Assembly (NCBI GenBank): GCA_944358625.1
Contig: CALVRL010000002.1
Span: 1 to 45,801 of the forward strand
DNA length: 45,801 nucleotides
Reading direction: 5' to 3'
Source of the DNA: an uncultured Bacilli bacterium
GTDB taxonomy: Bacteria; Bacillota_I; Bacilli_A; RF39; UBA660
Shown: positions 3,765-45,801 of the stretch, piece by piece
Numbering within the stretch: the stretch's first letter is position 1
Layout of the letters: the number at the start of each line of letters is the position of its first letter
Position numbers and translations under genes: made by a program
Notes under the pieces: generated by a model
Database searches by the model: none
The model's input: only the letters and a program-made list of their open reading frames with translations
What the model was told of the DNA's origin: nothing

Positions 3765-3849
3765 TTTGACCCCTACTTTCTAGTTTAATTTTACCACATT
3801 TTTAGAATTAAATATATTAAAAACTCTGAAATTAATCAGAGTTTACAAA

Positions 3850-5431: not shown

Positions 5432-5445
5432 AATATCACTTCTTT

Positions 5446-6330: not shown

Positions 6331-6343
6331 TATTCATTCCTCC

Positions 6344-7442: not shown

Positions 7443-7530
7443 TGGTTAGCCTCCTATCATTAATTAATTATAACAAATTATTTAATTTTTTACTAGCTTA
7501 TTTAGCCTCAAAAAAAATATAAATTAATCT

Positions 7531-7806
7531 TTATATTTTTTTTAGTATGAAATACTTACAATCGTATGCCCCATTTTCTTTTATATATTCTTCAGTTTTA
7601 TCTATATCGTTTATTGGTTTATATTTTTTATTTTTCTTATCACAAAAACCTTTTAAACGTAATTTCCCATATGCCCAGTCACCTAGTATGTAATCATAAT
7701 CCTCAAAATATTCTGTATATCTTTCTTTTACGGTTTCAAAATCAAAGGCATTTTTATAATCTTTAATTAATTCATAATTATTATTTTCTATTTGATATGT
7801 TTTCAT
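7531..7806 (-). CDS. YutD-like protein (DUF1027)
   Basis: 91-aa ORF. ELIKDYKNAFDFETVKERYTEYFEDYDYILGDWAYGKLRLKGF matches the YutD signature (DKYDYIVGDWGYGQLRLKGF). Confidence 0.7.
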   Translation of the reverse strand: MKTYQIENNNYELIKDYKNAFDFETVKERYTEYFEDYDYILGDWAYGKLRLKGFCDKKNKKYKPINDIDKTEEYIKENGAYDCKYFILKKI

Positions 7807-7839
7807 ATTTTCTTCACCAGTTATATTATAACTTATATT

Positions 7840-8583
7840 TTAATTATTTGGAAGTGTTATAGATGGAGTTGCTGTATTTAAGTTTCCATAATAACTTGGT
7901 ACTTTACCATTTACTAATTTTATGGCTATTGGAACTTTAGTTTCCAATTCTATTTCTTTATCATAAAAGGGCAAGATGATGTTTTCGGTAATTTTTATGT
8001 TGGCATACACTTTTATTAATGCATTATTTATTCCATAATTTGTTACTTCTGTAGATATATTACTTACTACATCACCTGTTAGTGATATTTTTATTGGAAT
8101 TTGAGCACCAAAGTTAGCAAATATTGGATTATTAAATATAAAACCGCTATTTAGGTAATATATAATTCCTTTTTTTAAGTTTTCTTCATCATAATTTTCT
8201 AATAATCCTGCTTGATATTCTATTTTATCTATATTTCCTTCTTCTATATATTTTAAGTTTCTTTGTATGCTTTTGGTCGCATCTGTAAGATAACTATTTA
8301 TGAGTGCTGTGTTGAAGTCTATTGATTCTATCTCATTATTATCTTGTGTAATTAAAAACAAATTATTGATATCTACTTTTTCTGTAATATATTTATCTAT
8401 GGCATCATTTATTATTATGCTGGAAAATTTTTTGGCTTCTAATGAACCATATTTAAATAGACTTGGCATTATTTTTTCTTTGATTTGATTAAATACTATG
8501 TATAGGCTTATCAAGGTTAATAATAGAAAAACGGCAAATATGTTTATTGGTTTTAATTTTCTTTTTAAATGGATTTTTTTCAT
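7840..8583 (-). CDS. yunB: sporulation protein YunB-like
   Basis: 247-aa ORF with one N-terminal TM. The following region (EAKKFSSIIINDAIDKYITEKVD...ESIDFNTALINSYL) and the size resemble YunB. Assigned from memory of the family. Confidence 0.55.
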   Translation of the reverse strand: MKKIHLKRKLKPINIFAVFLLLTLISLYIVFNQIKEKIMPSLFKYGSLEAKKFSSIIINDAIDKYITEKVDINNLFLITQDNNEIESIDFNTALINSYLTDATKSIQRNLKYIEEGNIDKIEYQAGLLENYDEENLKKGIIYYLNSGFIFNNPIFANFGAQIPIKISLTGDVVSNISTEVTNYGINNALIKVYANIKITENIILPFYDKEIELETKVPIAIKLVNGKVPSYYGNLNTATPSITLPNN

Positions 8584-8614
8584 ATTTAATTATATTCAAA
8601 AAAACTAGTATTAA

Positions 8615-9937
8615 CTAGCTTTTTCGGTATCTAAATTTATAAGTTACTTCTAATTTATAATTATTATTTGTAGCAAACTGTGGAATAGTCATTTTTACTT
8701 TTTTTTCAAAGTCTTGACGGTTTAATGGTTCATCTAAAACTTTTAAAGATAATATATCGTATTTTATTCTAAATCTTGTCATTATTTTTCTTTCTTCTAC
8801 TCTGTATTCTGATGTCTCTGCACTCGAATGACTTTCTGAATCCCAAGATGTTGGGGTTCCTAAAGTTTCTGTTTCTTCATCTTTAAATGGTTTATCATTA
8901 GGCTGTCTTGAAGTATATGAACTATATTTTCTTTTTTGGCCATTATACCATCGCCACATTTTATCTCTATATCTATATAATGTAGTTGTATCGTCATCTC
9001 TTTGGTCATATTTGTCTGTATCTACATCTTCTTGTGCGCTATATTGACCACTATTATAATATACTTTTTCGCCATCTTTATTTAAATAGTAAAACTTGTA
9101 TCCTGTTGTACTTTGTATTGTACGGTAATCTTTTTCTTCTGGGTAATTTAAAGAATAGTCTGTCCAATTAGTATATATTTCACTACCTTCATCTTTATTT
9201 ACATATCCTTGAGGCTGCTCTGATGAAAAGTCCGAATAGTCTCCCTCTATATCATACCACTTCCATGAGCGGTCTCTATATCTATAATAATATGTTGTAT
9301 CATTTTCTATATTAGATATTTCGGCTTCTTTTGGTATACTTGGTAATTTTTCTTCATCTAATGGTAATCTAATTCCATATTTTGATGTTTCATCTTGGAG
9401 TTCTGAATCATCAAAATAATCTGTCCAACCTGTAGTACTTGTATCTTTTATGTAATAGTTATAATATGGGATAATATCTACAATGGCTTTGCCACTTGGA
9501 TATGATGTTTGTTCTTTACTCCATTCACCATATTTTTTATTTACTGAACACTGACCACAATTTCTAACATCTATGGTGTATAAATAATCCTCTTTGTATT
9601 TTGTTATTTTTACATTTCCTGAACATAAACTATTATTTGTATTTGCACTTGATAAATATTTGTCATTATATAAATCATCTAACCTAACTGTTGTAGTTTC
9701 GCCTTCTAAAGTTGGTAAATTTCCTTGGTCTTTAGCATATTTTAAACTTGCGTTTTCAATACTTTTATATACATTTAAACAGTTACCATTTTGAATTAAA
9801 GCAACTATTATAAAAATTATAATTACTACAGGTAAAACTGTACCTATAACAAAGAAAAAACGTAATAATGGTTTTTTATTTTCAAAAGACTGATTTATTG
9901 TATTTCCTTCTTCATCTACATATCCTCTTCTTTTCAT
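8615..9937 (-). CDS. membrane-anchored hypothetical protein with duplicated Y-R-Y-R-D-x-x-W-x-W-Y motif
   Basis: 440-aa ORF with an N-terminal TM (FFFVIGTVLPVVIIIFIIVALI), a Cys-containing extracellular head and two copies of DTT..YRYRD(R/K)xW(K/R)WY...S(E/R)QP. No family recognised. Confidence 0.6.
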   Translation of the reverse strand: MKRRGYVDEEGNTINQSFENKKPLLRFFFVIGTVLPVVIIIFIIVALIQNGNCLNVYKSIENASLKYAKDQGNLPTLEGETTTVRLDDLYNDKYLSSANTNNSLCSGNVKITKYKEDYLYTIDVRNCGQCSVNKKYGEWSKEQTSYPSGKAIVDIIPYYNYYIKDTSTTGWTDYFDDSELQDETSKYGIRLPLDEEKLPSIPKEAEISNIENDTTYYYRYRDRSWKWYDIEGDYSDFSSEQPQGYVNKDEGSEIYTNWTDYSLNYPEEKDYRTIQSTTGYKFYYLNKDGEKVYYNSGQYSAQEDVDTDKYDQRDDDTTTLYRYRDKMWRWYNGQKRKYSSYTSRQPNDKPFKDEETETLGTPTSWDSESHSSAETSEYRVEERKIMTRFRIKYDILSLKVLDEPLNRQDFEKKVKMTIPQFATNNNYKLEVTYKFRYRKS

Positions 9938-9995
9938 TTTGTCACCCCTTGTATTATAATTTTATCACATATATATTTTTTTTAAAATATTTTAA

Positions 9996-10024
9996 AGAAA
10001 AAAAGTCTCGTAAAGACTTTTTTA
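9996..10024 (-). terminator. intrinsic terminator after the lipoprotein gene
   Basis: The minus strand reads AAAAAAGTCTTTACGAGACTTTTTTT. It has a 5-6 bp GC-containing stem (GTCT..AGAC) followed by a T-run, just 3' of the stop at 10032. Confidence 0.6.
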
Positions 10025-12029: not shown

Positions 12030-14327
12030 CTATCTTCCTCCACAAGTATTTAAACTTGCATTTTTTATTCTTTCCATTGGTATTCCTTCGCCATCTTTTC
12101 TTCCGCATCCTGGACAGAAGTCTCCGATTACTCCAGTATATCCGCAAACTGGGTCTCTATCTACTGGATGATTAATAGCGCCGTAGCCAATTCCGTTATC
12201 ATGCATTACTCTAATAATTTGTTCAAATGCATCTACATTCATAGCAGTATCGCCATCTAATTCTACATAAGTGATATGACCACCATTTGTAAATGCGTGA
12301 TAAGGTGCTTCTAACTGAATTTTTTTAACAGCTGAAATATTATAGTAAACTGGTACGTGGAATGAATTTGTATAATATTCTTTATCTGTAACACCTTTTA
12401 TTTTTCCATAAATTGCTTTATCTATATTTGTAAATCTTCCTGATAAGCCTTCGGCTGGTGTTGCGATTAATGAGAAGTTTAAGTTGTATTCTTTTGTATA
12501 TTCATCTGTTTTCTTTCTCATAAATCCTATTATTTTTAAGCCTAATTTTTGGGCTTCTTCACTTTCACCATGATGTTTTCCTATTAATGCTTTTAAACAT
12601 TCGGCTAGTCCAATAAATCCTATTGTAAGTGTGCCGTGTTTTAAAACTTTTCTTAATCTATCATTTGTTTTTAATTTTTCGCTATCCATCCATACTCCTT
12701 GTCCTAATAAGAATGGGAAATTGTATATTCTTTTTGAACATTGTATTTCGAATCTTTCTAGTAATTGGTCTTTGACTAAATCCATTAATTCTTCTAGTTC
12801 TTTAAAAAATCCATCTAAATCTGTTTTTCCACTTACTATACCGTGTTTGATTCCAAGTCTTGGTAAGTTAATTGAAGTAAATGATAAATTTCCTCTTCCT
12901 GGGGTAATTGGATGATCTGATGTTACGTCTGCTAAAACTCTTGTTCTACATCCCATATATCCTACTTCTGTTTCATAATCGTTTGGATCATAATATTCTA
13001 AATTGAATGGTGCATCTATGAATGAGAAGTTAGGGAATAATCTTTTGGCTGAAACTTCACAAGCTAATTTAAATAAATCATAGTTTGGATCTTCTTGATT
13101 ATAGTTAACTCCTGATTTCACTTTGAATATTGAAATTGGGAATATTGGTGTTTCGTGATTTCCAAGTCCAGCATCTGTTGCTAGTAAATAATTGTGTATT
13201 ACCATTCTTCCTTCTGGTGATGTGTCTGTTCCAAAATTGATTGATGAAAATGGTACTTGCGCTCCTGCTCTTGAATGCATTGTATTTAAGTTGTGAATAA
13301 ATGCTTCCATTGCTTGATAAGTTTGTCTATCTGTTTTTTGATAAGCTTTTTCATAAGCTTTTTTAAATAATCTTTCTAGTTGAGTTGAACCTTTTGTATA
13401 TTGTTCAAACATGCTTAAATCTATTTCTATTGTTTTTAATTTGTCTATTTCTTTGGCTATTTTATCCATATTTATATAGTACTCAAAATCTGTTAAATCT
13501 AAATAATCGTATATTGACTGTTTTAATTGTTTTTTGAATGTTGCTAGTACTCCTGGTGCCATATAGTAATCAAATGCTGGTATGGCTTGGCCACCGTGCT
13601 GATCATTTTGATTTGCTTGTATAGCTATGGCTGCTAATGCTGTATAACTCATAATATCTTTTGGTTCTCTTAAGAAACCATGTCCTGTTGAAAAGCCGTT
13701 TTTAAATAATTTTTTTATATCTATTTGACAACAAGTTGTTGTACCCATTGGTAAGAAGTCCATGTCGTGGATATGAATATCTCCACCATCATGTGCTTCG
13801 GCAAATTTTGGTTTCATTAAATATGCTTTAGCAAATTCTTTTGATACTGTTGATCCATACTGAAGCATTGTTCCCATGGCTGTATCACCATCGACATTAG
13901 CATTTTCTCTTTTAGCATTTTCTTCATATGATGATTTTAATCCTAAACTTTCTAATGCTTTTAAGAATTTATGTTGTTTCTTTTCTCCAAAGAATATTTG
14001 TCTTGAAACATTTCTTCTTTCTCTATAATCCGAAAATTCTTTATAGACATCTGGATATCCTTGTTTTTGTAATTCTGCTTCTATTAAATCTTGAATTGCT
14101 TCTATTTTTATTTTATCTTCGTTTTTATATTCTTTTTCAATGCGTTTAATAACTGCGTTGTAAACTTTATTGACGTCTTTTTCAGAATAATGTTTTTCTT
14201 CATCTTTTTCTAAACTGTCAAAAGCTTTTTTAATGGCTATAGCTATTTTTGTCCCATTCCATTCTACTTTTTTACCACTTCTTTTTATAACTGTTAAGTA
14301 GTCTAATTTTTCTTCTTCAATTGTCAT
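12030..14327 (-). CDS. nrdD: anaerobic ribonucleoside-triphosphate reductase, large polypeptide lacking the glycyl-radical tail
   Basis: 765-aa ORF with an N-terminal ATP-cone (VIKRSGKKVEWNGTKIAIAIKKAF), the class III RNR core and a Zn-ribbon region (DPVCGYTGVIGDFCPGCG). It ends ...GEGIPMERIKNASLNTCGGR-TAG without any RxxGY motif. Confidence 0.9.
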   Translation of the reverse strand: MTIEEEKLDYLTVIKRSGKKVEWNGTKIAIAIKKAFDSLEKDEEKHYSEKDVNKVYNAVIKRIEKEYKNEDKIKIEAIQDLIEAELQKQGYPDVYKEFSDYRERRNVSRQIFFGEKKQHKFLKALESLGLKSSYEENAKRENANVDGDTAMGTMLQYGSTVSKEFAKAYLMKPKFAEAHDGGDIHIHDMDFLPMGTTTCCQIDIKKLFKNGFSTGHGFLREPKDIMSYTALAAIAIQANQNDQHGGQAIPAFDYYMAPGVLATFKKQLKQSIYDYLDLTDFEYYINMDKIAKEIDKLKTIEIDLSMFEQYTKGSTQLERLFKKAYEKAYQKTDRQTYQAMEAFIHNLNTMHSRAGAQVPFSSINFGTDTSPEGRMVIHNYLLATDAGLGNHETPIFPISIFKVKSGVNYNQEDPNYDLFKLACEVSAKRLFPNFSFIDAPFNLEYYDPNDYETEVGYMGCRTRVLADVTSDHPITPGRGNLSFTSINLPRLGIKHGIVSGKTDLDGFFKELEELMDLVKDQLLERFEIQCSKRIYNFPFLLGQGVWMDSEKLKTNDRLRKVLKHGTLTIGFIGLAECLKALIGKHHGESEEAQKLGLKIIGFMRKKTDEYTKEYNLNFSLIATPAEGLSGRFTNIDKAIYGKIKGVTDKEYYTNSFHVPVYYNISAVKKIQLEAPYHAFTNGGHITYVELDGDTAMNVDAFEQIIRVMHDNGIGYGAINHPVDRDPVCGYTGVIGDFCPGCGRKDGEGIPMERIKNASLNTCGGR

Positions 14328-25509: not shown

Positions 25510-26463
25510 ATGTATTATACTAAAAAAAGAAAGATTAAAAAGGGGCCTATAATTTTTATTGCTGTTGTTATTTTTATTATTATTTTAATTATTGTATGCA
25601 TAAATTTATATAAGCATTATACTAGTTTTGAATATAAACTTGGTGAGGCTGGATATAATGAAAAGGAAATTAAAGAAATTCTTAAGTTTGATAATAAATA
25701 TATAGAGTATGCTATAGAAAATAAATACGAAGATGATTTTATTCCTCTTTTAAAGCAAAAATATTTTATTTGGAAGAATTATGATAGATATATTGAATAT
25801 ATTAATGATGTATATGGTGACAAAAAAGTAGATTATGAAAAAGTTGTTTCTTTGGTTAATGTTGGGGCTGATAACGATCCTTATACACATACTAAAAAAA
25901 CTGATATGGATAAAGAATATGCTATTTTGGTTAATAAGTATAACTCACTTCCTGAAAAATATGCTCCTGATGATATAGTCGAGATGAGTAACTGGTATGC
26001 TTATCCTGATAATAGAATTAGGCAAACTGTATATGATGCTTTTAAGGAAATGAGTGAGGGTGCTAAAGAAAGTGGCTACACTTTAATTGTTAATTCTTCT
26101 TATAGGTCTTATGAAGAACAGAAAGAAATTTATGATGATTATGAGAGAAATAGGGGTAAAGAATATGCGGATAAATATGCGGCTAGGCCTGACTTTTCAG
26201 AGCATCAAACTGGGCTTTCTTTAGATATATTTTCTCCTGGCGCTAATATGAGTAATTTTGCGGATACTGAAACTTATAAATGGCTTAAAGATAATTCTTA
26301 TAAATATGGTTTTATTTTAAGATATCCTTTAGGCAAAGAGGATATTACTGGTTATAATTATGAGGCATGGCATTATAGATATTTAGGTAAGGAGCTTGCT
26401 AAAAAGGTTTATGATAGTGGTTTAACTTATGATGAGTATTATGCTTATTATTTGGATAAATAG
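25510..26463 (+). CDS. membrane-anchored D-alanyl-D-alanine carboxypeptidase, peptidase M15B (VanY-like)
   Basis: 317-aa ORF with an N-terminal TM. The VanY motifs are SSYRSYEEQ, SEHQTGLSLDI and EAWHYRY. Confidence 0.8.
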   Translation: MYYTKKRKIKKGPIIFIAVVIFIIILIIVCINLYKHYTSFEYKLGEAGYNEKEIKEILKFDNKYIEYAIENKYEDDFIPLLKQKYFIWKNYDRYIEYINDVYGDKKVDYEKVVSLVNVGADNDPYTHTKKTDMDKEYAILVNKYNSLPEKYAPDDIVEMSNWYAYPDNRIRQTVYDAFKEMSEGAKESGYTLIVNSSYRSYEEQKEIYDDYERNRGKEYADKYAARPDFSEHQTGLSLDIFSPGANMSNFADTETYKWLKDNSYKYGFILRYPLGKEDITGYNYEAWHYRYLGKELAKKVYDSGLTYDEYYAYYLDK

Positions 26464-26471
26464 GTGATGGT

Positions 26472-27536
26472 ATGAAAAGGGTTTTAATTATTTTATTTAT
26501 TTTAATTATTGCTGTCACTTTCTTTTTTATATTTTATAAAAAGGATTTAAGTTATGAAGATAAAATGAAAAATTTAGGGTATTCTTCTAGCGAAGTTAGT
26601 CTTATTTTAGATAATGTTTCTTCACAAAATTATGATTTAGTTTTAGAACTTGGTTATGATAAAAGTTTAATTAATATTTTAAATTCTAATGATTATAAGG
26701 AAAATAATTTTGAAAATTACATAAAATATTATATGAAAAACAAAAAAGCTAATATAGGTGATATTATCAGTATTGTAAATTCTAATTATGATTTGATGAA
26801 TTATCCTGCTTCTGGCTTACTTGCTAATTTAGTTAAAGAAAAATATTATATAAATGCTAATGTGGCCCGTTATTTAGATTATGGTAACAGTCATGATGTT
26901 AATAGTAAAAAAATTATTTCTATTGTTAATTCTAAAGCTGATTTGGAATTTTATAGTGAAAGTTACGATAGTAATTTGAATGATAATAATTTGATTTTGG
27001 TTAATAAATTTTATCATTTAAAAGAAGATTATGTCCCTAATGATTTGGTTACTTTATCTGGTCAGTATAATAAAGGGGCAAATAATAAAATGAGAAAAGA
27101 TGCTGCTTTAGCTTTTATGGAAATGGTCGATGCGGCTAAATTAGATAATATTATTCTTTATAATATGTCGGCTTATAGGGATTATAATTATCAGGTTAAT
27201 CTTTATAATAAATATATTCAAAGGGATGGTAAAGAGGCTGCTGATAAATATTCGGCTAGACCTGGATATTCTGAACATCAAAGCGGATTATGCTCTGATT
27301 TAAATAATATTAGTGATTCTTTTGATGGAACTGATGAGGCTATATGGCTTAAAAATAATGCTTATAAATATGGGTTTATTTTGAGATTTCCTAAAGATAA
27401 AGAGGATATTACTGGGTATAAATATGAACCTTGGCATTATAGATATGTTGGTAAGGATGCTGCTAAAATAATTTATGATGATGATATTACTTTAGAGGAA
27501 TATTATGCTTATTATATAGAAAACACTTCAAATTAA
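26472..27536 (+). CDS. second VanY-like M15B carboxypeptidase (tandem paralogue)
   Basis: 354-aa ORF with an N-terminal TM. The motifs are SAYRDYNYQ, SEHQSGLCSDL and EPWHYRY. Confidence 0.8.
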   Translation: MKRVLIILFILIIAVTFFFIFYKKDLSYEDKMKNLGYSSSEVSLILDNVSSQNYDLVLELGYDKSLINILNSNDYKENNFENYIKYYMKNKKANIGDIISIVNSNYDLMNYPASGLLANLVKEKYYINANVARYLDYGNSHDVNSKKIISIVNSKADLEFYSESYDSNLNDNNLILVNKFYHLKEDYVPNDLVTLSGQYNKGANNKMRKDAALAFMEMVDAAKLDNIILYNMSAYRDYNYQVNLYNKYIQRDGKEAADKYSARPGYSEHQSGLCSDLNNISDSFDGTDEAIWLKNNAYKYGFILRFPKDKEDITGYKYEPWHYRYVGKDAAKIIYDDDITLEEYYAYYIENTSN

Positions 27537-37045: not shown

Positions 37046-37066
37046 TAAAAAAAGGCGTAAAGCCTT
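37046..37066 (-). terminator. intrinsic terminator of the HU gene
   Basis: The minus strand reads AAGGCTTTACGCCTT followed by TTTTTTT. The stem overlaps the stop codon. Confidence 0.65.
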
Positions 37067-37337
37067 AGTTTAATGCATCTTTTAATTTTGCGCCAGCTTT
37101 GATAGAAACAGCTGTTCTTGCAGGAATAGTTACAGCCTCACCAGTTCTTGGATTACGACCTTGTCTAGCATCTTTATGTTGAGCAGCAAATGTGCAGAAA
37201 CCTGTTAATGTAACTTTTCCTTCACTTTTTAAACCTTCTACAATTCCATTTAATACTGCATCTAATGCTCTAGTAGCATCTGCTTTAGTCATTCCTGTTT
37301 CTTCAGCAATATAGTTTACTAAATTTTGTTTTGTCAT
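37065..37337 (-). CDS. hup: DNA-binding protein HU
   Basis: GGGAGG precedes the ATG at 37337. It reads MTKQNLVNYIAEETGMTKADATRALDAVLNGIVEGLKSEGKVTLTGFCTF...RNPRTGEAVTIPA, the canonical HU sequence. The ORF-track N-terminal extension is unlikely. Confidence 0.9.
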   Translation of the reverse strand: MTKQNLVNYIAEETGMTKADATRALDAVLNGIVEGLKSEGKVTLTGFCTFAAQHKDARQGRNPRTGEAVTIPARTAVSIKAGAKLKDALN

Positions 37338-37521
37338 TTCAATATACCTCCCTTGTATTGTTAAGCTATCTTGCTTACATTTACATAGTACCATTTTTAT
37401 TAAGAAAAATCAACATTTTTTAAGGTTTTTTACGTTTTTCGTGTTAAGGTGTGTACTGTAGGTTTATGATTTATTTTATAAAGTTTTATTTATTTTGAAT
37501 CATTAGTAATATTTTTGAATG

Positions 37522-37806
37522 TTAAATAACTATGGCAAATAGGTTTCCTGAACCTTTATTTACAAGTTTTGATAATGTTTGTTTTAGTTTGAATCTAACA
37601 CTTTCTGGCATTAATGATAGTTTTGCTTGTATTCCTTCTTGAACTATAACATCTAAACTTCTTCCGAATATTTCACTTTTCCATATGTTTTCTGTTCCTG
37701 AATCTTTATCTTTCATCAGATAGTTTATTAATTCTTTACTTTGTATTTCTGAACCTATTATTGGTTCGAATGTGCTTTCAACATCTACTCTAATCATGTG
37801 TATAAT
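37522..37806 (-). pseudogene. spoIVA: stage IV sporulation protein A, 3'-terminal segment only (gene split by the integrated element)
   Basis: IHMIRVDVESTFEPIIGSEIQSKEL...IFGRSLDVIVQEGIQAKLSLMPESVRFKLKQTLSKLVNKGSGNLFAIVI aligns with the C-terminus of B. subtilis SpoIVA (IHMIKVDVESEFAPIIG...GIQAKLSLMPENARYKLKETLERIINEGSGGLIAIIL, from memory). The N-terminal ~400 aa are absent from the window. hbs is adjacent as in Bacillus. Confidence 0.85.
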
Positions 37807-39433
37807 ACGAACAAGAAGGATGCGTTTTATTTTTAAAAGAAATACTGTAATTATCTCCAGTATTAAGTATAATTCTTAACTTTATAAAATCTTTGTCTTT
37901 CATCTTATAGACTTCTATCTTCTCTAAAAATTCATAAATCAAACTATCAATATCGGCTTTCTCATACTCAAGTAGTTCTTTCGCTTTTTTCTTGACACTT
38001 TCTAAATATCTCTCATCTTCTAATAAATGATTACTTTTTTCTTCTAAAATAGTTATTTCATCTTCAAGTTTATGAATTTCGTTAACTATTTTCTCTACTT
38101 GTAGTTTAAAGTCATCTTCATTAATTAAGTCTTTTAGAATTAGGTCAAGTATTTTACTTTTCTTCTTTTCTAACATTTCTATTTTCTTCTGTTTTACTTC
38201 TATCTCATCTTTAAAATCCATATTACTTTGAAGTTCTTTGTACTCTTTCATTAAATCATCAATGACATTAATATTAGATACGTAACTTAATATTGTTTTA
38301 CCGACAATTTCTCTTAATTCATTATCATAAAGAATAGGACCATCACAACCTTTAGTATTATGTTTTAAAAACTCACTACATCTCCAAGTAACTACCTTTT
38401 TCTTTTTTATACCACTACTTGTATTTACTTTTCTTCTATATGTCGTATTATGCTCCATACAATAAATCTTTCCACTAAACGGGTACCTATTTTGATATAC
38501 TGTTTTATCTTTAGATAGCTTTTTACTTCTAGCTTCAATAATATTTTGGGCTTTTTCCCATATAGAAGCACTTACAATAGGTGGAACACTCTCATTATCT
38601 TCATAAAGCTTCCAGTCATCTTTTTCAATATTTACTCTTTGTTTAGAGTGATAGTCAATAACTCTTGTCTTATTTCCACAGTAATAACCTTTATATTTAG
38701 GATTAGTAAGAATATTTTTAATTGTATTTTGAGTGAAAGGTTTTCCATTACTATTGTAATAACCTAAATCAGCTAATTTATGTCCAATAGTTCGCATACC
38801 AATATGTTCATTAACATACATATCAAATATTCTTCTAATAATTTCTGCTTCTTCCTCTACAATAACTAACTTACAATTATCTTTTTTATAACCCCATATG
38901 GCATTGTTACCTAAAACATTTCCTTTTTCAATAGACCTTTGAAAACCAAACCTTACTCTTTCAGATAGTTTTCTAACTTCCTCTTGTGCGATAGAAGCCA
39001 TAATAGTTAATCTCAATTCAGAGTCAGGATTAAAAGTGTTTATATGGTCGTATTGGAATAAAACACCAACACCATACTCTAATAGTTTTCTTGTATACTT
39101 TATACTATCTAAAGTATCTCTTGCGAACCTTGATATTTCTTTAGTTATAATTAAATTAAATTTTTTATTTTTAGCGTCTCTAATCATACGTTTAAAATCA
39201 TCACGTTTAGCTGTTGAAGTACCAGTAATTCCCTCATCAACATAACCATCAACAAAAGTCCAATTTGTATTTTCTCTAATAAAATGTTCGTAGTAGGTTA
39301 TTTGATTTTCCAAAGAGTTTAACTGGTCGTATTTATCAGTAGATACCCTAGCATAATAAGTAACTTTTAAATGTAAATCAAATATAGATACACCATTAGC
39401 TAGGGCATTTCTGATTTCAAATAATGTTAGCAT
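37790..39433 (-). CDS. large serine recombinase (SpoIVCA/SprA-like)
   Basis: 547-aa ORF. The N-terminal resolvase domain has YYARVSTDKYDQLNSLENQ (catalytic Ser) and ISRFARD. A recombinase domain follows, then a zinc ribbon (CMEHNTTY...WRCSEFLKHNTKGC) and a long coiled coil. Confidence 0.9.
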   Translation of the reverse strand: MLTLFEIRNALANGVSIFDLHLKVTYYARVSTDKYDQLNSLENQITYYEHFIRENTNWTFVDGYVDEGITGTSTAKRDDFKRMIRDAKNKKFNLIITKEISRFARDTLDSIKYTRKLLEYGVGVLFQYDHINTFNPDSELRLTIMASIAQEEVRKLSERVRFGFQRSIEKGNVLGNNAIWGYKKDNCKLVIVEEEAEIIRRIFDMYVNEHIGMRTIGHKLADLGYYNSNGKPFTQNTIKNILTNPKYKGYYCGNKTRVIDYHSKQRVNIEKDDWKLYEDNESVPPIVSASIWEKAQNIIEARSKKLSKDKTVYQNRYPFSGKIYCMEHNTTYRRKVNTSSGIKKKKVVTWRCSEFLKHNTKGCDGPILYDNELREIVGKTILSYVSNINVIDDLMKEYKELQSNMDFKDEIEVKQKKIEMLEKKKSKILDLILKDLINEDDFKLQVEKIVNEIHKLEDEITILEEKSNHLLEDERYLESVKKKAKELLEYEKADIDSLIYEFLEKIEVYKMKDKDFIKLRIILNTGDNYSISFKNKTHPSCSYYTHD

Positions 39434-39606
39434 TAAATAAGTGATAATTCCTTATTTAATGTTTCTATTTTTTCTAATAGTGATGACTCCATCTGTTCAT
39501 AGATACTACTACTAATAACATTACTAGAAAAAAGATTTTTATTGATGATAAGTTGTAACTTAAATTTACTTATTTTATCTATAATACTCTTAACATTATT
39601 TTCCAT
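39433..39606 (-). CDS. 57-aa helical protein translationally coupled to the recombinase gene
   Basis: Not in the ORF track. GGAGG (39620-39616) plus 9 nt precedes the ATG at 39606. It reads MENNVKSIIDKISKFKLQLIINKNLFSSNVISSSIYEQMESSLLEKIETLNKELSLI. Its TAA overlaps the recombinase ATG (TAATG). Confidence 0.45.
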   Translation of the reverse strand: MENNVKSIIDKISKFKLQLIINKNLFSSNVISSSIYEQMESSLLEKIETLNKELSLI

Positions 39607-39642
39607 AAAATAATTCCTCCTAGTAAAACTTTATTAAGAAGG

Positions 39643-39686
39643 ATAGAAAAATATCATTGTTTCTTTATGACAAAATATTTTCCTAT
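39643..39686. repeat. imperfect inverted repeat ATAGAAAAATAT...ATATTTTCCTAT upstream of the small-ORF/recombinase operon
   Basis: The arms at 39643-39654 and 39675-39686 match at 11 of 12 positions. An inner TCAT...ATGA symmetry is also present. Confidence 0.45.
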
Positions 39687-39734
39687 TCTTTTTTATGTGG
39701 TATATAATATACCCTTTTTTAAATAACGTACATA

Positions 39735-41477
39735 TTAGGTTATCAGATTATCAGTATTTTCATTTAAGGTTTGATAATCTGTATCATTTTCTAAAGTCCA
39801 ATACCATTTACCTTGAACTTGTATGCTTTTAACATCAAGTTCTTTTTTAGCTCTATTTAAAGTAGAAGAGTTAATATCATTTTCTTTCGCTCTTTCAAAC
39901 ATATCAGCAGAAGCAACCATGTTATTATTTTCTTTAAGCATTGATAATATATACTCTTTCGCTTCTTCTCTCGCTTTCAATTTAAGTTTTGACATATCTT
40001 CTTCTTTTTCATCAAGCTGTTCTAAATACTTAACCCCATCATCAGTTATTTCAAATAAAATAGTATTACCCTTTCTTCCAAGTGAAGCTTTAACATGAGA
40101 TATTATTTTATTGCCACCCTCGCTTGGCCCAATTTTAAGCATAGAACGAGCTATACCAACAAAATCAATACTTCCTAATGCACGATAAATATCATCCTGT
40201 TTGGTTTTATTCATGTGCATAACTAATATAAGTGCGAAATTATATTTAATAGCAATATTCCCAATAGGTGCAAGTAATTTTCTAACTTCAGTTGCAGAAT
40301 TCATAGATATATCTCCCAAATATCTTTGTAATGGGTCTATAACGACCAATTTAGGAGACTGTTCTTTAACAGCTTTTTCAAATCTCGTTAAATCTTCCAA
40401 ACTGAATATAGGATTATCTATTTCATTAATAATGAAAATATTTTTTTGATTTGCTTTTAACATACATAATCTTTCTTTAATGGTATCAGATATTCCATCT
40501 TCTCCGTTTTGATAAATAACTTTTGATGGATATACATAATCTTTATTTAATATTTCATCATGAAAGGGAAATGGCTCACCTCTTGATAGTCTTGAAGCCC
40601 AGTCAAGTACTAACATTGACTTACCACTACCTGGGTCTCCAACAACTAATGTTATTCTACCCAAAGGTATATAAGGATACCAAAGCCAGTCAACATTTTT
40701 CTGTTTTACATCTGAAAGACATATTAAGTCTATATCAGCATTGTAGTTATCATCATAAACAGCACTATTGCCTTTTAAGTTATAATCTTTAGCTCTTTTA
40801 CTAAATGATTCCACTTCATTATCACTTAATGGCTCTTTAAAGAGGTTTTTATTAATAAAATTACCTATCTCTAGCAATTGTTCTGACTTGAATTGATATT
40901 TATTATAAACTTCTCTTATGTGATTAAATAAAGCCGTGTTTCTTCCGTCGTGCTCTTTCATATTTATAAAACAAGTTTTTAAATTAACATTATTATGTAA
41001 TGGGTAACAAAGTATTGGTAATTCTGGTAAATTTTTAATAACCTCATCTGTTAAATCTTCTTTAGCCTCTCTCATTACACCATTTACTTTTACAACAGCC
41101 GTTCCATTATTCTCACACCTATAATCAACTTGAAAACCACCACAAGTAAAACTATCAGCCCAATTATATATTTTTACACCTTTAGGTTTTTTAAAATATA
41201 AGTGATAGTGATTACTTTGAGACTTGATCCAATATGGATTATAATTTTTAATTAAATAATTAATCAAAAAAGACTCTTTATTAGTAATAATGTTACCCTC
41301 TTTATCTTTAGTAACATTGTCTTCATCAAAATCAATAACTACTACATCTTTTGGGACTAATAATGAAGCAGAAGCAAAAGTATCACAATTATCTTTTGCG
41401 TACTTTTGCTTATCTTCTTCTGTTTTAAAGGGATGAATGGGTTGTTTTTTTTCGTTAATTTCAATAAATCTTAACAT
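39735..41477 (-). CDS. bifunctional prim-pol (AEP primase-polymerase) / RepA-RecA-like P-loop NTPase replication protein
   Basis: 580-aa ORF. The N-terminal AEP motifs are VVVIDFDED and NHYHLYF. The central P-loop has VVGDPGSGKSML (Walker A) and LVVIDPLQRYL (Walker B, AAA_25-like). Confidence 0.8.
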   Translation of the reverse strand: MLRFIEINEKKQPIHPFKTEEDKQKYAKDNCDTFASASLLVPKDVVVIDFDEDNVTKDKEGNIITNKESFLINYLIKNYNPYWIKSQSNHYHLYFKKPKGVKIYNWADSFTCGGFQVDYRCENNGTAVVKVNGVMREAKEDLTDEVIKNLPELPILCYPLHNNVNLKTCFINMKEHDGRNTALFNHIREVYNKYQFKSEQLLEIGNFINKNLFKEPLSDNEVESFSKRAKDYNLKGNSAVYDDNYNADIDLICLSDVKQKNVDWLWYPYIPLGRITLVVGDPGSGKSMLVLDWASRLSRGEPFPFHDEILNKDYVYPSKVIYQNGEDGISDTIKERLCMLKANQKNIFIINEIDNPIFSLEDLTRFEKAVKEQSPKLVVIDPLQRYLGDISMNSATEVRKLLAPIGNIAIKYNFALILVMHMNKTKQDDIYRALGSIDFVGIARSMLKIGPSEGGNKIISHVKASLGRKGNTILFEITDDGVKYLEQLDEKEEDMSKLKLKAREEAKEYILSMLKENNNMVASADMFERAKENDINSSTLNRAKKELDVKSIQVQGKWYWTLENDTDYQTLNENTDNLIT

Positions 41478-41948
41478 TTATATTCTCCTTTCAAATGATT
41501 TATGAATTTGCACTTCATTTTTTCGGTTCCCTTTACTATTAAGTACTTGACTTATTGTAACAGGCGAACCTATCAAAAATTTAAGTGAATCGCATATTGT
41601 TGATACACTAGTCCAATTAATATCATTTTTGTACAGATTGTTAATCTGTTGTATTAGCTGGACTAGTTTGGTTATATACCACTCGTCATATTCACCTCCA
41701 AAAGTATAAGTATCAGCGACATTTTTTGAAATACCGTCGTCATCAACTTCATAAGAAATGACTAGTTTTGTATAGTTTGTTTCTTCTATAAAGATATCTT
41801 TTACTATACCTTCATATTCTTTTCCTATTTCTAAGTCAGCTGATAATTGGGCATAAGCCCTGTCTGCTAACTCCTCAAATTTACTTTTTTGTGGAGAAAC
41901 TTTGTAATAAGTTTCTCCATTTAAAATTTCTTGTTCTATATTCATCAT
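41478..41948 (-). CDS. hypothetical protein (replication-module neighbour)
   Basis: 156-aa ORF whose stop abuts the prim-pol start codon. No family recognised. Confidence 0.5.
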   Translation of the reverse strand: MMNIEQEILNGETYYKVSPQKSKFEELADRAYAQLSADLEIGKEYEGIVKDIFIEETNYTKLVISYEVDDDGISKNVADTYTFGGEYDEWYITKLVQLIQQINNLYKNDINWTSVSTICDSLKFLIGSPVTISQVLNSKGNRKNEVQIHKSFERRI

Positions 41949-42343
41949 TTTTCCTCCTTATTTTCTAGATTACTTAACTTGTTTATATAAGAGTATTTTT
42001 CTTCATTTACAATCTTTTCGTAATTTATTAATTCTCTCTTATAAACATTTTTATAAAGATAAGTAGCATTGCAAAGTGCTTCTTTACCAATTAATTTTTT
42101 TAATTCATTATTTAGATATTTAGGTGTAATAAAATGTTTCCTTTTTACTTTAATATCAAAATCTTCTAATAAGTCTAATATTTCTAAAGTTGTAAGATTT
42201 TTAGACTTTTTACTGAAGAAATTGTTTGAATAAACAATTCTTCCATTTTCATCTTTTTTACATTTGATTTTTATACAAGGATAACCTTGTGCTGTTTTAG
42301 TTAATATACTATCAAATATTTTAACTTTATAAGTCATGTTCAA
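41945..42343 (-). CDS. hypothetical protein
   Basis: 132-aa ORF with SD AAGGAGG upstream and a 4-nt overlap with the next ORF. No family recognised. Confidence 0.5.
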   Translation of the reverse strand: MNMTYKVKIFDSILTKTAQGYPCIKIKCKKDENGRIVYSNNFFSKKSKNLTTLEILDLLEDFDIKVKRKHFITPKYLNNELKKLIGKEALCNATYLYKNVYKRELINYEKIVNEEKYSYINKLSNLENKEEK

Positions 42344-42377
42344 TTATATCCTCCTTCTTTAATTTTTTTTGTTTTTT

Positions 42378-42490
42378 CTTTGTCCCTAAACAGTGTCACT
42401 CATATTTTGGAGACGATACTAATATTTATAATCAACGGAAACAAGTGTTCTTAAGGTAAATTATATGAGTAACACTACTTAAGGACAAAG
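42378..42490. repeat. long inverted repeat (28-nt arms, 24/28 complementary, 57-nt spacer)
   Basis: The left arm is CTTTGTCCCTAAACAGTGTCACTCATAT (42378-42405). The right arm is ATATGAGTAACACTACTTAAGGACAAAG (42463-42490). A third CTTAAGG copy lies in the spacer (42450-42456). Confidence 0.7.
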
Positions 42491-42589
42491 CAATTTTTAA
42501 TAATTTTTATTATTATGTCATAATATCATCGCCTTTCTTGTTTCAATTATCACAAATTTAGATAACAAAATATATGATAATATTTTTTT

Positions 42590-42639
42590 CGGAATATTCG
42601 GAATATTCTATTGATTATTTTTTATTATTCCAATATAAT
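42590..42639 (+). promoter_or_regulatory. tandem CGGAATATTC repeats abutting a sigmaA-type promoter for the 430-aa gene
   Basis: CGGAATATTC occurs twice (42590-42609), each copy containing the palindrome GAATATTC. Then come TTGATT (42611-42616), a 17-nt spacer, TATAAT (42634-42639), SD AAAGGAAG and the ATG at 42667. Confidence 0.5.
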
Positions 42640-42666
42640 AATTACTCATAGAGAAAGGAAGTTTAT

Positions 42667-43959
42667 ATGAATGAAGAAACATTTACACTTAAACTAAATC
42701 AAGTTAATTTAAACCCCGACAATTTTTTATTAGAAACTGCTTTTCCAAACAAAACTAAAGATATAGAAATATATATTAAAAAAAACCAAATAAAAATGGA
42801 GTCAACTGTAGACTCCTATACAAGAACAATATCAACAAATTTTATAGATAAATTTAATCTAATAAAAGAATTAGGAAACAAATTATATAATAATTTAGAT
42901 TTAATATCAGAAAATTATACGATTGTCACTTCATCTGCAGAAATTAACACTAAATATCAAAAAGAAAGCTCTTTTCAAAAAAAAATTTTCTTTTTTAGTA
43001 AACCTTATTTAAATGAGTATAGTATAAATATTTTAAAAGAATATTTCATAAAATATGGTTACCCTTATTTAACTTCTGATATTTTGTTAAAATTATCACA
43101 ATTAAAAGATAATGAAACTTATACTTTAACATTAGATATTACTTTTTTTGTTTATTATTGTATTTCTATATATATAATAAGTGAAACTCATTTTTTAATA
43201 TTACATAACAAAGGAAATGAAATCAAAAAATTCCTACCTATATATATTATTAATAATGCTAAACATAATAAAAGTATAATGTGGTTATGTACTAGAGGAA
43301 TAATGTTACTCATAAATAACATTAACAGTCTAATAGCTCTTCTTTCACAAGAATATAGTTTTTATTTATCTAGCATCCAATATTTAGATTTAAATTATTA
43401 TGAAAATATATTAAATAGAAATTATGAATATGATTTACCAAATAATGTGTATATAACTAAAGATGGACGTGAAATGAAAAGAAAAGGAAATAAACTATAT
43501 GATACTTATAATATAGAAAATTTAAGTTATAGTGAATATAAACCTACTGAATTGTTGTCTAAACTTATAAAAATAGAACATAGTTTTTATAACAATATAA
43601 TTATTCCAACATATAGTCATTTAAAATATATTTTATCTAATTCCAGTAAAAACTCTGGTTATCATTATTGTATTTATTGTCACAGTTCTTTTTTTGGGAT
43701 AGGTAAGGAATGTGAAAAATGTCATAAATTAAACTCAATAGAAAATAAGAAAAAATTTTCTGATAATAAACGATATGAAAAAATTACTGATACTTATAAA
43801 GTATTGTTAGAATTAAATAAAAATTATAATAAACTTACCAAAGATGAAGCTACCTATTTAAGTAGTATTAAAAGTGTATCTACTTTTAAAAAATTATATA
43901 CTAAGAATAAAGATAAAACAAAGATAGATGATTTAATAAAAAAAATGAGTAATCAGTAG
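42667..43959 (+). CDS. orphan 430-aa protein with C-terminal CxxC...CxxC zinc-ribbon-like motif
   Basis: It is the only plus-strand gene in the element and has its own promoter. The sequence is N/K/I/Y-rich with a hydrophobic central stretch (ITFFVYYCISIYIISETHFLIL). The Cys motif is HYCIYCHSSFFGIGKECEKCHK. No family recognised. Confidence 0.55.
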   Translation: MNEETFTLKLNQVNLNPDNFLLETAFPNKTKDIEIYIKKNQIKMESTVDSYTRTISTNFIDKFNLIKELGNKLYNNLDLISENYTIVTSSAEINTKYQKESSFQKKIFFFSKPYLNEYSINILKEYFIKYGYPYLTSDILLKLSQLKDNETYTLTLDITFFVYYCISIYIISETHFLILHNKGNEIKKFLPIYIINNAKHNKSIMWLCTRGIMLLINNINSLIALLSQEYSFYLSSIQYLDLNYYENILNRNYEYDLPNNVYITKDGREMKRKGNKLYDTYNIENLSYSEYKPTELLSKLIKIEHSFYNNIIIPTYSHLKYILSNSSKNSGYHYCIYCHSSFFGIGKECEKCHKLNSIENKKKFSDNKRYEKITDTYKVLLELNKNYNKLTKDEATYLSSIKSVSTFKKLYTKNKDKTKIDDLIKKMSNQ

Positions 43960-43993
43960 TATTACAATATTACTTATTACTCATAAAAATATA

Positions 43994-44602
43994 CTAATTA
44001 TTTGAGTTTAATTTCAATATTCTATCTAATTTAGGACGACTCCAATTCATTAATCTAGCGAACTCGCTTTTGTTAATTTGTTTTGTTTGATATAAATGTA
44101 AGTTTTTATAAAAAGTATCTGGTATATCATTTTTAGTTAATTTAGGCCTACCTATTTTATGGCCTTTTTCTCTAGCATTAGCTTGGCCTAATTTAATTTG
44201 CTCAATTCTCATTTTTCTTTCCATTTCTCCAAAGACAGCACTTATTTTTAACATTGACTCAACCATTACATCTAGTTGTTCGTTGCGACAGTCAACTACT
44301 AAAGAGCCGACAATTAAACAAATGTGATTTTCTTTAATAAAATCTAGTATCTCACAAAAATGAGATGTAGAGCGACTTAATCTTGTAATGTCTGTTACTC
44401 TTAAAGTATCTTTAGGTTTTAAAATAGACATTACTTTTTTTAATTCTGGTCTATTTTTATCAGCTCCACTAGCATATTCCAAATATATATTTTCCTCCTT
44501 AATACCATAATCTAATAATGCTTTTTTTTCATAAGTATAGTCTTGAAAAAGTGTACTACATCTACCATATCCATAAGTTGTAGGTGTTGATTTTTCTTCC
44601 AT
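43994..44602 (-). CDS. small serine recombinase (resolvase/invertase family) with C-terminal HTH
   Basis: 202-aa ORF. YGYGRCSTLFQD has the catalytic Ser in the GYxRxS context, and VTDITRLSRS is also present. The C-terminal HTH is INKSEFARLMNWSRPKLDRIL. Confidence 0.85.
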   Translation of the reverse strand: MEEKSTPTTYGYGRCSTLFQDYTYEKKALLDYGIKEENIYLEYASGADKNRPELKKVMSILKPKDTLRVTDITRLSRSTSHFCEILDFIKENHICLIVGSLVVDCRNEQLDVMVESMLKISAVFGEMERKMRIEQIKLGQANAREKGHKIGRPKLTKNDIPDTFYKNLHLYQTKQINKSEFARLMNWSRPKLDRILKLNSNN

Positions 44603-44746
44603 TTTTCTCCCCCTTAATGTAACTAAAATTATTAATTTAATTATTATTACAAGAAGTGTTAAAAAAGTACATAATTTTTAACACTTTTTATATTTTTCTT
44701 CTTTTTATAAGATGAAACAATAAATAAATGTTTTTTGTACATATAC

Positions 44747-45034
44747 TTAATTATCTTTGACTAAACCAACTTGTTTCATTAGTTTATTTAACTCTTGTTC
44801 TAATTCTTCTTTTGCTTCGTTTTCTAAATATTCTTTTACTTTAGTTGGATTTAATCCTAAACTTTCAACATATAAGTTAAAGACAAACTCATCATAATCA
44901 TTAGTATTAACCATATAATTACCACCAACTTTTATAGCTTTTAGCTTTCCATTATGTATATACCTACGAAGTGTCGCTGTTGATAAATTAAGTCTGTTAG
45001 CCACATCTTTTAATCGTATTAGTTCTGTAACCAT
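44747..45034 (-). CDS. excisionase/MerR-type helix-turn-helix protein
   Basis: The likely start is the ATG at 45034 (GAAAGGA upstream). LIRLKDVANRLNLSTATLRRYIHNGKLKAIKVGGNYMVNTNDYDEF is an HTH_17/Xis-type domain. Confidence 0.7.
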   Translation of the reverse strand: MVTELIRLKDVANRLNLSTATLRRYIHNGKLKAIKVGGNYMVNTNDYDEFVFNLYVESLGLNPTKVKEYLENEAKEELEQELNKLMKQVGLVKDN

Positions 45035-45121
45035 AGTATCAGTCCTTTCGTTAACTTTCTTGTACTTTAATAAAAAGTCGTTCAATATCATATATAAAAA
45101 GAGTGTAAAAATAAAACAGTG

Positions 45122-45343
45122 CTACTCAACACTGTCTTTTAATAATTCTTGAAATTTTATTTCTTCTTCTATCATATCATCAAACTTATCATACTTATTC
45201 ATTAACTCTTTATCAACCTTATCTAATAGTAATTTATATTTTGACTTAAAGAAAATGGATGAGTAATATTTATCTAAAATTTGATTTCTCATCTTCTCTA
45301 ATGGTTGTATTATTGTTTTACAATATAATTCTAAATAGTTCAT
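45122..45343 (-). CDS. hypothetical 73-aa protein
   Basis: ORF coupled (4-nt overlap) to the upstream ATPase gene. No family recognised. Confidence 0.4.
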   Translation of the reverse strand: MNYLELYCKTIIQPLEKMRNQILDKYYSSIFFKSKYKLLLDKVDKELMNKYDKFDDMIEEEIKFQELLKDSVE

Positions 45344-45789
45344 TGTTCAGCCTTTTCTATAGTTATAATTAAATCTGCATATTCTTTACATTTATCTATA
45401 CTTTTATCAATAGTATATGAACTTTCACAATAACTTACTATAATAACTTTATTTAAATTAACAGCTAATTCTTTTAATAGGCTGAGTAGAGTAGTGGCTT
45501 CTTTATTTAATGAATATGATAATAATTGAAGATAATCTATAACAATAATTTCATATTTATTAATTATCTTATCTATTATTGAAAAGTCATCTATGCGTTT
45601 GAGATATACATCTATGTTATCACTTAATTTTAATCTACTAATAGTAGAACCTTCTAAATCTATGAAACACATTGTTTTGTCTTTTATAGAATTAGATATA
45701 TCTACTAAAAAAGTAGATTTACCACTTCCAGCTTTTCCATTTACTAAAATTAAATTCTTGTTTTTTAATGTCTCCATATATTTTATCAT
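45340..45789 (-). CDS. minimal RecA/DnaB-C-terminal-like P-loop ATPase (149 aa)
   Basis: Walker A is LVNGKAGSGKSTF. Walker B is IIVIDYLQLL, the DnaB-type IDYLQL motif. No N-terminal helicase domain is present. Confidence 0.6.
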   Translation of the reverse strand: MIKYMETLKNKNLILVNGKAGSGKSTFLVDISNSIKDKTMCFIDLEGSTISRLKLSDNIDVYLKRIDDFSIIDKIINKYEIIVIDYLQLLSYSLNKEATTLLSLLKELAVNLNKVIIVSYCESSYTIDKSIDKCKEYADLIITIEKAEQ

Positions 45790-45801
45790 CTCTCTTTCTT
45801 T

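Follow-up and report, generated by a model that had tools for sequence, protein, structure and literature searches.

Seven sporulation genes of the mother cell give precedent for interruption by a DNA element that a large serine recombinase (LSR) can remove, namely sigK (element skin), spsM (SPbeta), kamA (phi12-5), gerE (gin), yabG (yin), spoVFB (vfbin) and spoVR (vrin) (PMC4191935, PMC6957869, PMC5595907, PMC10747680). Here we analyze an element of this kind in spoIVA of an uncultured Bacilli bacterium (assembly GCA_944358625.1, contig CALVRL010000002.1); by "the window" we mean this entire contig of 45,801 bp (GC ~27%), the right edge of which falls inside the element. SpoIVA is a structural ATPase of the coat basement that belongs to the early sigmaE regulon and acts directly after asymmetric division; its mother-cell (sigmaE) expression is established in B. 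subtilis as well as in C. difficile, while its C-terminal domain is required for localisation and assembly. It is also the sole spore-coat morphogenetic protein conserved across all endospore formers (bioRxiv 10.1101/2022.02.25.481979). A preliminary description of this DNA did not place spoIVA among the described cases, and the full-text literature that we searched, which excludes subscription journals, likewise contains no account of this gene being split by an element in nature. Comparison of the window with related contigs demonstrates the insertion, its attachment (att) sites, the exact restorability of the gene, the specificity for one site across hosts, and horizontal spread. It is likely, in our opinion, that precise excision by the LSR restores spoIVA in the living cell, with a mother-cell timing that we propose by analogy.

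The preliminary description stated that the window contains only the last ~95 codons of spoIVA, at the native locus with hbs downstream, and both statements hold. An open reading frame (ORF) of 91 aa (37522-37797, minus strand) was identified by profile search as Pfam SpoIVA_C (PF20439, E=2.7e-26) and covers positions 402-492 of the 492-position SpoIVA equivalog model TIGR02836 (E=1.3e-31), and in-frame Ile and His codons prolong the SpoIVA match beyond this ORF. The end of similarity, formerly put at about 37806, lies precisely at 37803. A tblastn search of the window with the rejoined SpoIVA protein (see below) gave 100% identity across residues 399-491. The element interrupts SpoIVA at residue ~401, and its DNA continues from the LSR gene to the window edge. 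The features at and around the junction are as follows:

37065-37394, minus strand: hbs (HU), native neighbour of spoIVA on the downstream side (NCBIfam HU-beta, 4.9e-23; same neighbour in empty-site contigs)
37522-37803, minus strand: 3' segment of spoIVA, two codons (I, H) plus the 91-aa ORF, corresponding to SpoIVA residues ~400-491, C-terminal domain
37777-37825, minus strand: attR, approximate extent, with the P arm from the element (37801-37825) and the B' arm from the host (37777-37798)
37796-37803, minus strand: 8-bp core ATACACAT, common to attB, attL and attR (junction comparison)
37790-39433, minus strand: LSR, 547 aa (Resolvase 1e-29, Recombinase 6.6e-24, Zn_ribbon_recom 2.2e-6)
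39433-39606, minus strand: 57-aa ORF, candidate recombination directionality factor (RDF), whose stop overlaps the LSR start (TAATG)
39607-39682, minus strand: conserved leader of ~75 nt, 5' of the operon of the 57-aa ORF and LSR (alignment across elements)

The far end of the element, the 5' half of spoIVA and the empty site were all read from sister contigs. The exact 91-aa fragment is present on 119 contigs (174 index blocks of the collection), and ten long ones (L012-L021) have both halves of spoIVA at a locus with the native gene order der-spoVIF-spoIVA-hbs. In nine of these (L013-L021) the halves are separated by an insert of 2,804 bp, in which the LSR gene and the 57-aa ORF are accompanied solely by a gene for a Fic-domain protein, and in the tenth (L012) by an insert of ~6.5 kb (3528-10002) with different cargo and an LSR that is only 47% identical. 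As the preliminary description had anticipated, the 5' half lies at the far end of the element (L012-L021 and L083, see below), and it encodes the SpoIVA_ATPase and middle domains with the Walker A motif GAVRTGKSTF. When the halves from L013 are joined at the core, they form a continuous ORF of 491 aa with this Walker A motif, whose product scores 709 bits over the full length of TIGR02836 (cutoff 459.9) and agrees at every residue with P0121, an allele that occurs uninterrupted in nature (5 contigs, same synteny). The continuous frame predicted earlier from a shared short core is thereby obtained, and the uninterrupted genes of relatives define attB, likewise as expected: contigs L022-L025, from the same species, carry an intact spoIVA at the same locus, with flanks 99.4-99.6% identical to the window. 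The window and an empty-site contig share 99.55% identity over 6,282 bp, and since this similarity begins exactly at 37803, the homology break coincides with the core. Two intact alleles with the window's C-terminus, P0121 and P0126, were found on 5 contigs each among the 40 of 232 cluster members that were read, vs 119 contigs with the split form. All 3' fragments of spoIVA keep an open frame, and the truncated SpoIVA acquires a tail of 26-28 aa encoded by the element. Just inside attL there is a terminator-like hairpin (GGAAGCG ... CGCTTCC, then TTTT; ~5165-5200 in L013, ~95-130 in L083), which overlaps the right attP arm and, judging from its sequence, would terminate the truncated spoIVA transcript and stop read-through from the spoIVA promoter. 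Ahead of spoIVA, a sigmaE-like motif, TCATATT-N13-CATATATT, can be read by eye.

A complete copy of the window's type of element was found via its 580-aa protein (see below), which occurs in exactly the same form on contigs L082-L084. The element of L083, flanked by the 5' spoIVA fragment with attL at 73-80 and by attR at 13675-13682, is 13,602 bp long and 99.5% identical to the window (45801-37651), thus ~5.6 kb of the window's element lies past the edge. A 7-kb twin contig (L001) adds nothing to the window. Contig ends inside the element are consistent with strain heterogeneity or with repeated modules that break assemblies.

In attB the core is embedded as ...GCGCCATCA ATACACAT GATTAGAGTAGATG..., with the left host arm retained in attL and the right host arm in attR; the core region may also be read as ..CCATCAATACACATGATTAGAG.. 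in attB and as ..CGYAYTATACACATAATAWGTAC.. in attP. The window itself has attR only, and the extent listed for it was derived from symmetric arms of ~22 bp. The core ATACACAT is found at both attL and attR in L013-L021 and L033, and the attR of L083 has ATACATAT instead (identity ATACA). The reconstructed attP shows dyad symmetry centred at the first CA of CACAT, at 16 of 22 positions in L013 and 14 of 22 in L033, compared with 1-11 for other centres in either reconstruction; attB is only weakly symmetric (7 of 22). L083 has ATACAC in attL and ATACAT in attR, a difference that places strand exchange to the left of the differing base. From host to host, elements that are otherwise near-identical vary in the attR base that follows CA, which would fit an origin of this base from host DNA. 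The junction overlap in L012 comprises only CACATGA, and this overlap and the base difference in L083 independently indicate CA as the point of exchange. From these alignments we infer that crossover occurs at the CA at 37799-37800, i.e. at the first two bases of the His401 codon. The LSR ORF overlaps the 91-aa spoIVA ORF by 8 nt and is closed by a stop codon that belongs to the host's spoIVA; hence the C-terminus of the LSR (547-565 aa) follows the spoIVA codons of the host. Depending on the host, the protein ends with THD, TYD, TYDSC, THDSSRC or ...RIYLRTNYWIGTSK before the stop. We considered these C-terminal variants as possible attP forms and rejected this, as differences in host spoIVA codons explain all of them. 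In the excised circle, the LSR ORF would be expected to run ~40 codons further.

The spoIVA site is used by this group of recombinases across hosts. In a survey of LSRs, for which each species was represented by a single genome and metagenome contigs were scanned apart from these, all sequences with at least 69% identity to that of the window adjoin a SpoIVA_C fragment that starts at residue 398-400, wherever the contig passes the LSR gene. Those with at most 43% identity are not found beside a SpoIVA_C fragment, and the 47%-identical lineage of L012 occupies the same spoIVA site. Carriers belong to at least seven host species and comprise six GTDB species representatives and metagenome loci, including human-gut contigs. 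The representatives are a circular 1.26-Mb HiFi chromosome of an "uncultured Bacilli bacterium", "Clostridium sp. CAG:914", "uncultured Tenericutes bacterium UMGS1402" and three further metagenome-assembled genomes (MAGs) named "uncultured Bacilli bacterium" (L030, L031, L033); OZ006994.1 is among the carrier genomes. The peptide encoded by attB, ...APSIHMI(R/K)VDVESTFEPIIG, is highly conserved, which accounts for the broad host range of the element. Hosts that have diverged at the 3' end of spoIVA (~83% aa identity, dS>1, synonymous sites saturated) nevertheless carry an LSR and element with 95-99% identity, which indicates recent horizontal spread. The dN/dS ratio of the spoIVA 3' fragments is 0.07-0.25; we dropped it as proof of selection on the interrupted gene, the insertions being recent.

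The LSR has the domain order PF00239, PF07508, PF13408 with a YARVSTD catalytic motif containing Ser31, and a heptad-like stretch can be read from the sequence of its C-terminal region (~400-480). The curated models nearest to it score below threshold (CcrB 127 bits, NCBIfam XisF 109.6 bits with a cutoff of 375), and the best match among solved structures is 3g13, the catalytic domain of a recombinase from a conjugative transposon. A small ORF (57-64 aa) precedes and overlaps every spoIVA-targeting LSR gene examined, with 10 invariant alignment columns; in the L012 lineage its equivalent makes up the C-terminal portion of a longer ORF of 92 aa, in which the conserved hairpin motif is kept. AlphaFold2 modelled the 57-aa protein as a helical hairpin (pLDDT 97.8), and six of eight family members show weak matches to SHOCT_2. 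The protein has no homology to known RDFs, and the structures that Foldseek matched to the model were without exception generic helical hairpins, none with an E value below 0.3. Among these generic matches is the coiled-coil motif of a Listeria innocua phage integrase (5uae, TM 0.87, E 2.1); that a directionality factor may mimic the integrase coiled coil is a speculative idea. By analogy with the described systems, this small protein, which appears translationally coupled to the LSR, is the candidate RDF. Sigma-70-like sites are not enriched, and none is present in the ~75-nt leader of the LSR operon.

Beyond the leader, the window contains the following genes of the element:

39735-41477, minus strand: 580-aa AAA_25 primase/helicase-like replication protein (AAA_25 1.8e-30; PHROG DNA primase/helicase and polymerase/primase matches)
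41478-42343, minus strand: two small ORFs of 156 aa and 132 aa, with no Pfam or PHROG family, conserved in L082-L084
42667-43959, plus strand: 430-aa cargo ORF on the opposite strand, GC ~19%, with no match in Pfam, PHROGs or PADLOC
43994-44602, minus strand: 202-aa small serine recombinase of the resolvase/invertase type (Resolvase 7.6e-25; PHROG DNA invertase 2.7e-36)
44747-45789, minus strand: module that combines a 73-aa ORF with genes for an HTH_17 excisionase-like protein of 114 aa and a DnaB_C/AAA_24-like ATPase of 149 aa (Pfam, PHROG)

The preliminary description had recognized a 547-aa large serine recombinase, a prim-pol/helicase, a second recombinase and an Xis-like gene in this region, and of these the term "prim-pol" holds only in part: the 580-aa protein has the PHROG primase/helicase matches, but Pfam recognized no prim-pol domain near its N-terminus. 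The 430-aa ORF is at least 90% conserved in 13 cluster members, each inside the same element type. PADLOC detected no convincing defence system in the window's cargo. In the mini-element, the Fic-domain protein (L013, 5306-6046) is the sole cargo and matches the PADLOC candidate families PDC-S04 (1e-37) and SoFic (4e-28), and the element of L012, from the same species, carries HTH_3, DUF4352, small resolvase and DUF6076-like genes. Past the edge, the window-type element, as read from L083, codes for a membrane protein with a G5 domain, a replication initiator similar to DnaD, a repressor-like HTH_3 protein and five uncharacterized proteins, of which one contains a SHOCT domain.

In the complete element of 13.6 kb we found no genes for phage structure, packaging or lysis and none for conjugation, and its PHROG categories are restricted to regulation, replication and integration. 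A prophage origin was considered and rejected: IMG/VR contains no close relative, and LSRs of GenBank phages are at most 48% identical over part of their length. Judging from its gene content, the element is a small integrative element that looks replication-competent, and not a prophage. Of the earlier label "skin/SPbeta-style", the part that denotes an intervening element with an LSR remains valid; its prophage-like connotation does not, the element being closer to the non-phage gin type. The module of ATPase, 73-aa ORF and HTH_17 protein recurs beside tyrosine integrases in L003 and L026-L029, which points to the mosaic nature of these elements. Across the contigs that have it (the window, L003, L026-L029, L044), its neighbour is a tyrosine integrase or a small serine resolvase, depending on the contig, and the elements of L026-L028 also hold a group II intron reverse transcriptase. 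This distribution suggests mosaic or nested elements. A search for repeats within the element yielded just AT-rich chance matches and no nested att-like repeats.

On the 3' side of the spoIVA fragment, hbs is followed by genes for the CCA-adding enzyme, dnaD and nth. The hbs ORF as called mechanically has 109 aa; HU homology and the 90-aa calls in sister contigs begin at the internal Met20, and the true start is probably at 37337. Other genes of the window that deserve mention are:

411-1205, minus strand: yabG, intact (Peptidase_U57, 1.4e-90)
7840-8583, minus strand: yunB, intact
25510-27536, plus strand: tandem pair of VanY-type carboxypeptidases

The VanY-type pair, annotated via sister contigs, runs opposite to the flanking genes on one side. 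As yabG and yunB are intact, the organism retains sporulation genes.

We propose the following scenario for this uncultured bacterium, a spore former of low GC within the Bacilli. The LSR would recombine an attP of ~50 bp with dyad symmetry with attB in the conserved spoIVA sequence, exchanging strands at CA; the element of ~13.6 kb sits in codon ~401. Integration cuts SpoIVA after the ATPase and middle domains and detaches the C-terminal domain. The same LSR, together with a directionality factor, most likely the 57-aa helical-hairpin protein, would excise the element precisely and regenerate the uninterrupted spoIVA of 491 codons. In analogy to skin, SPbeta, vfbin, vrin, gin and yin, excision is predicted to take place in the mother cell after activation of sigmaE, in which case the terminal mother cell would make functional SpoIVA, whereas the forespore chromosome would retain the element. 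The mother-cell-specific timing is suggested by the precedent of the seven genes listed at the outset, by the fact that split alleles prevail in nature, by the minimal unit of small ORF and LSR kept in the 2.8-kb element, by the need for the C-terminal domain of SpoIVA, and by the intact neighbouring sporulation genes.

Several observations weigh against this scenario. When the region 5' of the 57-aa/LSR operon was read by hand in the window-type element, neither a sigmaE nor a sigmaK promoter could be recognized with conviction; its single CATA box, GAATAGG-N12-CATAAAGA, is missing from the abundant 2.8-kb element. In L032 the region upstream of the LSR operon reads GGAATT-N13-CATATTAT, also by hand, and no sigmaE/K motif survives across elements. 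The sequences searched contain neither an attP-type junction nor an extended LSR (a search with the predicted attP-extended C-terminus retrieved only fragments that lack the extension), which is a weak negative for the excised form. The insertions are recent, as near-identical elements occur across hosts, so the intact frames and low dN/dS mostly reflect the history before insertion. The 5' half from the window's own genome is not among the recovered sequences, and a carrier genome may have a second, intact spoIVA elsewhere.

The first alternative, which we consider unlikely, is an element that can be excised and is not wired into development: excision would be stochastic, induced by stress or signalled by the element itself (under a repressor, in the manner of a satellite or prophage), and the result would be a mixed population in which sporulation is open only to cells that are cured of the element or have excised it transiently, hence a phase-variation or bet-hedging switch on sporulation. 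The HTH_3 repressor-like gene, the replication initiator, the primase-helicase and the Xis-like gene are indeed typical of autonomously regulated elements, and occupied and empty alleles are both present in the species. Moreover, yin of C. botulinum was found excised in all growth phases (PMC10747680), and the lack of a recognized sigmaE/K promoter would agree with such behaviour. On the other hand, most sister contigs have the mini-element, which besides the LSR and the small ORF keeps a single gene of cargo; this fits a minimal excision unit kept for sporulation, as in small intervening elements (PMC6957869). The terminator-like hairpin would shield the element from spoIVA transcription, and the LSR operon has its own conserved leader; both argue against excision that is independent of development.

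According to the second alternative, for which we see even less room, the insertion simply knocks out spoIVA, and the carriers are asporogenous or losing sporulation, with no programmed excision. This would hardly be expected from the abundance of the split allele, which forms the majority (119 contigs vs 5 and 5 with the intact alleles among the members read), or from the occupation of the site in at least seven species by two LSR lineages only 47% identical, which would be hard to sustain if spore transmission were lost. No copy has a broken LSR or small ORF, the rejoined product equals the natural intact protein, and yabG and yunB are intact nearby. Such an inactivation is nevertheless compatible with the 95-99% identity of the element across diverged hosts, since intact halves are then expected without selection, and with a recombinase operon that has no identified sporulation-type promoter and an excised form that was not found; in addition, some Bacilli, e.g. 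Erysipelotrichaceae, have a much reduced set of sporulation genes (bioRxiv 10.1101/2022.02.25.481979). Finally, a misassembly that joins a spoIVA fragment to mobile-element DNA is extremely improbable: the window contig and several others, including three long-read ones (L026, L027, L028), do end in the element, but the identical junction recurs in over 100 contigs obtained independently, by several studies and with several assemblers, in the circular HiFi MAG chromosome of a related host and in contigs that span both junctions, and it has the exact structure of an att site.

If spoIVA does depend on excision by the LSR, an early, structural and essential gene would be added to sigK, spoVFB, spoVR, spsM, gerE, kamA and yabG, and the speed and reliability required of such rearrangements could be tested on it. 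We also entertain a more far-reaching view, which we regard as speculative and rather doubtful as a whole: for a horizontally spreading family of small non-phage elements (2.8 to >13 kb) with exchangeable cargo, including a Fic-type candidate defence gene, one conserved spoIVA codon would serve as a safe harbour throughout the species of uncultured human-gut Bacilli, and the earliest step of coat morphogenesis would require LSR excision timed by sigmaE and controlled by a new class of 57-aa hairpin RDFs that resemble the integrase coiled coil. Independently of this, the contigs provide population data on empty, mini and full-size occupants of one site within one species and on recent transfer between species of the human gut, and the new LSR, with its attB, attP and candidate RDF, is of interest as a tool for genome integration. 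In MAGs of these Bacilli, moreover, the insertion accounts for a spoIVA gene that seems truncated or absent, an appearance by which the capacity to sporulate could be wrongly predicted.

Among the known systems, skin (in sigK; SpoIVCA/Skr in B. subtilis, CD1231/CD1234 in C. difficile) resembles the spoIVA element in splitting the coding sequence of a mother-cell sporulation gene, in having the LSR gene at the element edge directly 5' of the 3' gene fragment, in the in-frame restoration at a short core, and in a small ORF that, like skr, lies ahead of the LSR start or overlaps it. Skr is an RDF of 64 aa whose gene overlaps spoIVCA (PMC6957869). The target of skin is, however, a sigma factor, whereas here it is the structural gene spoIVA; the spoIVA element has no prophage genes, and its sporulation-specific expression is assumed by analogy. 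The gin element (in gerE of B. cereus ATCC 10987; GirC/GirX) is similar in being non-prophage, with an LSR and a very small RDF (GirX of 42 aa, compared with the candidate of 57 aa) (PMC5595907), and in having extra small serine recombinases (girA/B, compared with the 202-aa resolvase) and a core of 9 bp, compared with 8 bp here (PMC5595907). It differs in target and host clade, and the spoIVA elements show a wider range of size and cargo (2.8 to 13.6 kb and more), recent spread between species, and replication genes.

SPbeta (spsM) and phi12-5 (kamA), with SprA/SprB, share with the spoIVA elements (where the rdf is a candidate) the unit attL - rdf - int(LSR) - attR, which is modular across cargoes, and for SPbeta and phi12-5, too, degenerate mini versions are kept in some strains (PMC4191935, PMC6957869). 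SPbeta, in contrast, is an active phage of 134 kb with its RDF under dual SOS and sporulation control (PMC4191935, PMC6957869), and phage functions are absent here. In yin (yabG, C. botulinum), vfbin (spoVFB) and vrin (spoVR) we again see an LSR element in a sporulation gene, an attB that is empty in relatives, and a predicted RDF; yin is described as unique to one strain and prophage-like (PMC10747680), unlike the spoIVA elements, which occur in many species and samples. The fdxN element of Anabaena heterocysts with its recombinase XisF is another LSR element excised developmentally in a terminally differentiating cell, as we infer for spoIVA; it differs in phylum, developmental programme and target gene, and the XisF score of our LSR is far below the cutoff, as given above. 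The class of mechanism is well known; what is new is the target gene, the host clade of uncultured small-genome gut Bacilli, the mosaic non-phage cargo, and the spread across species.

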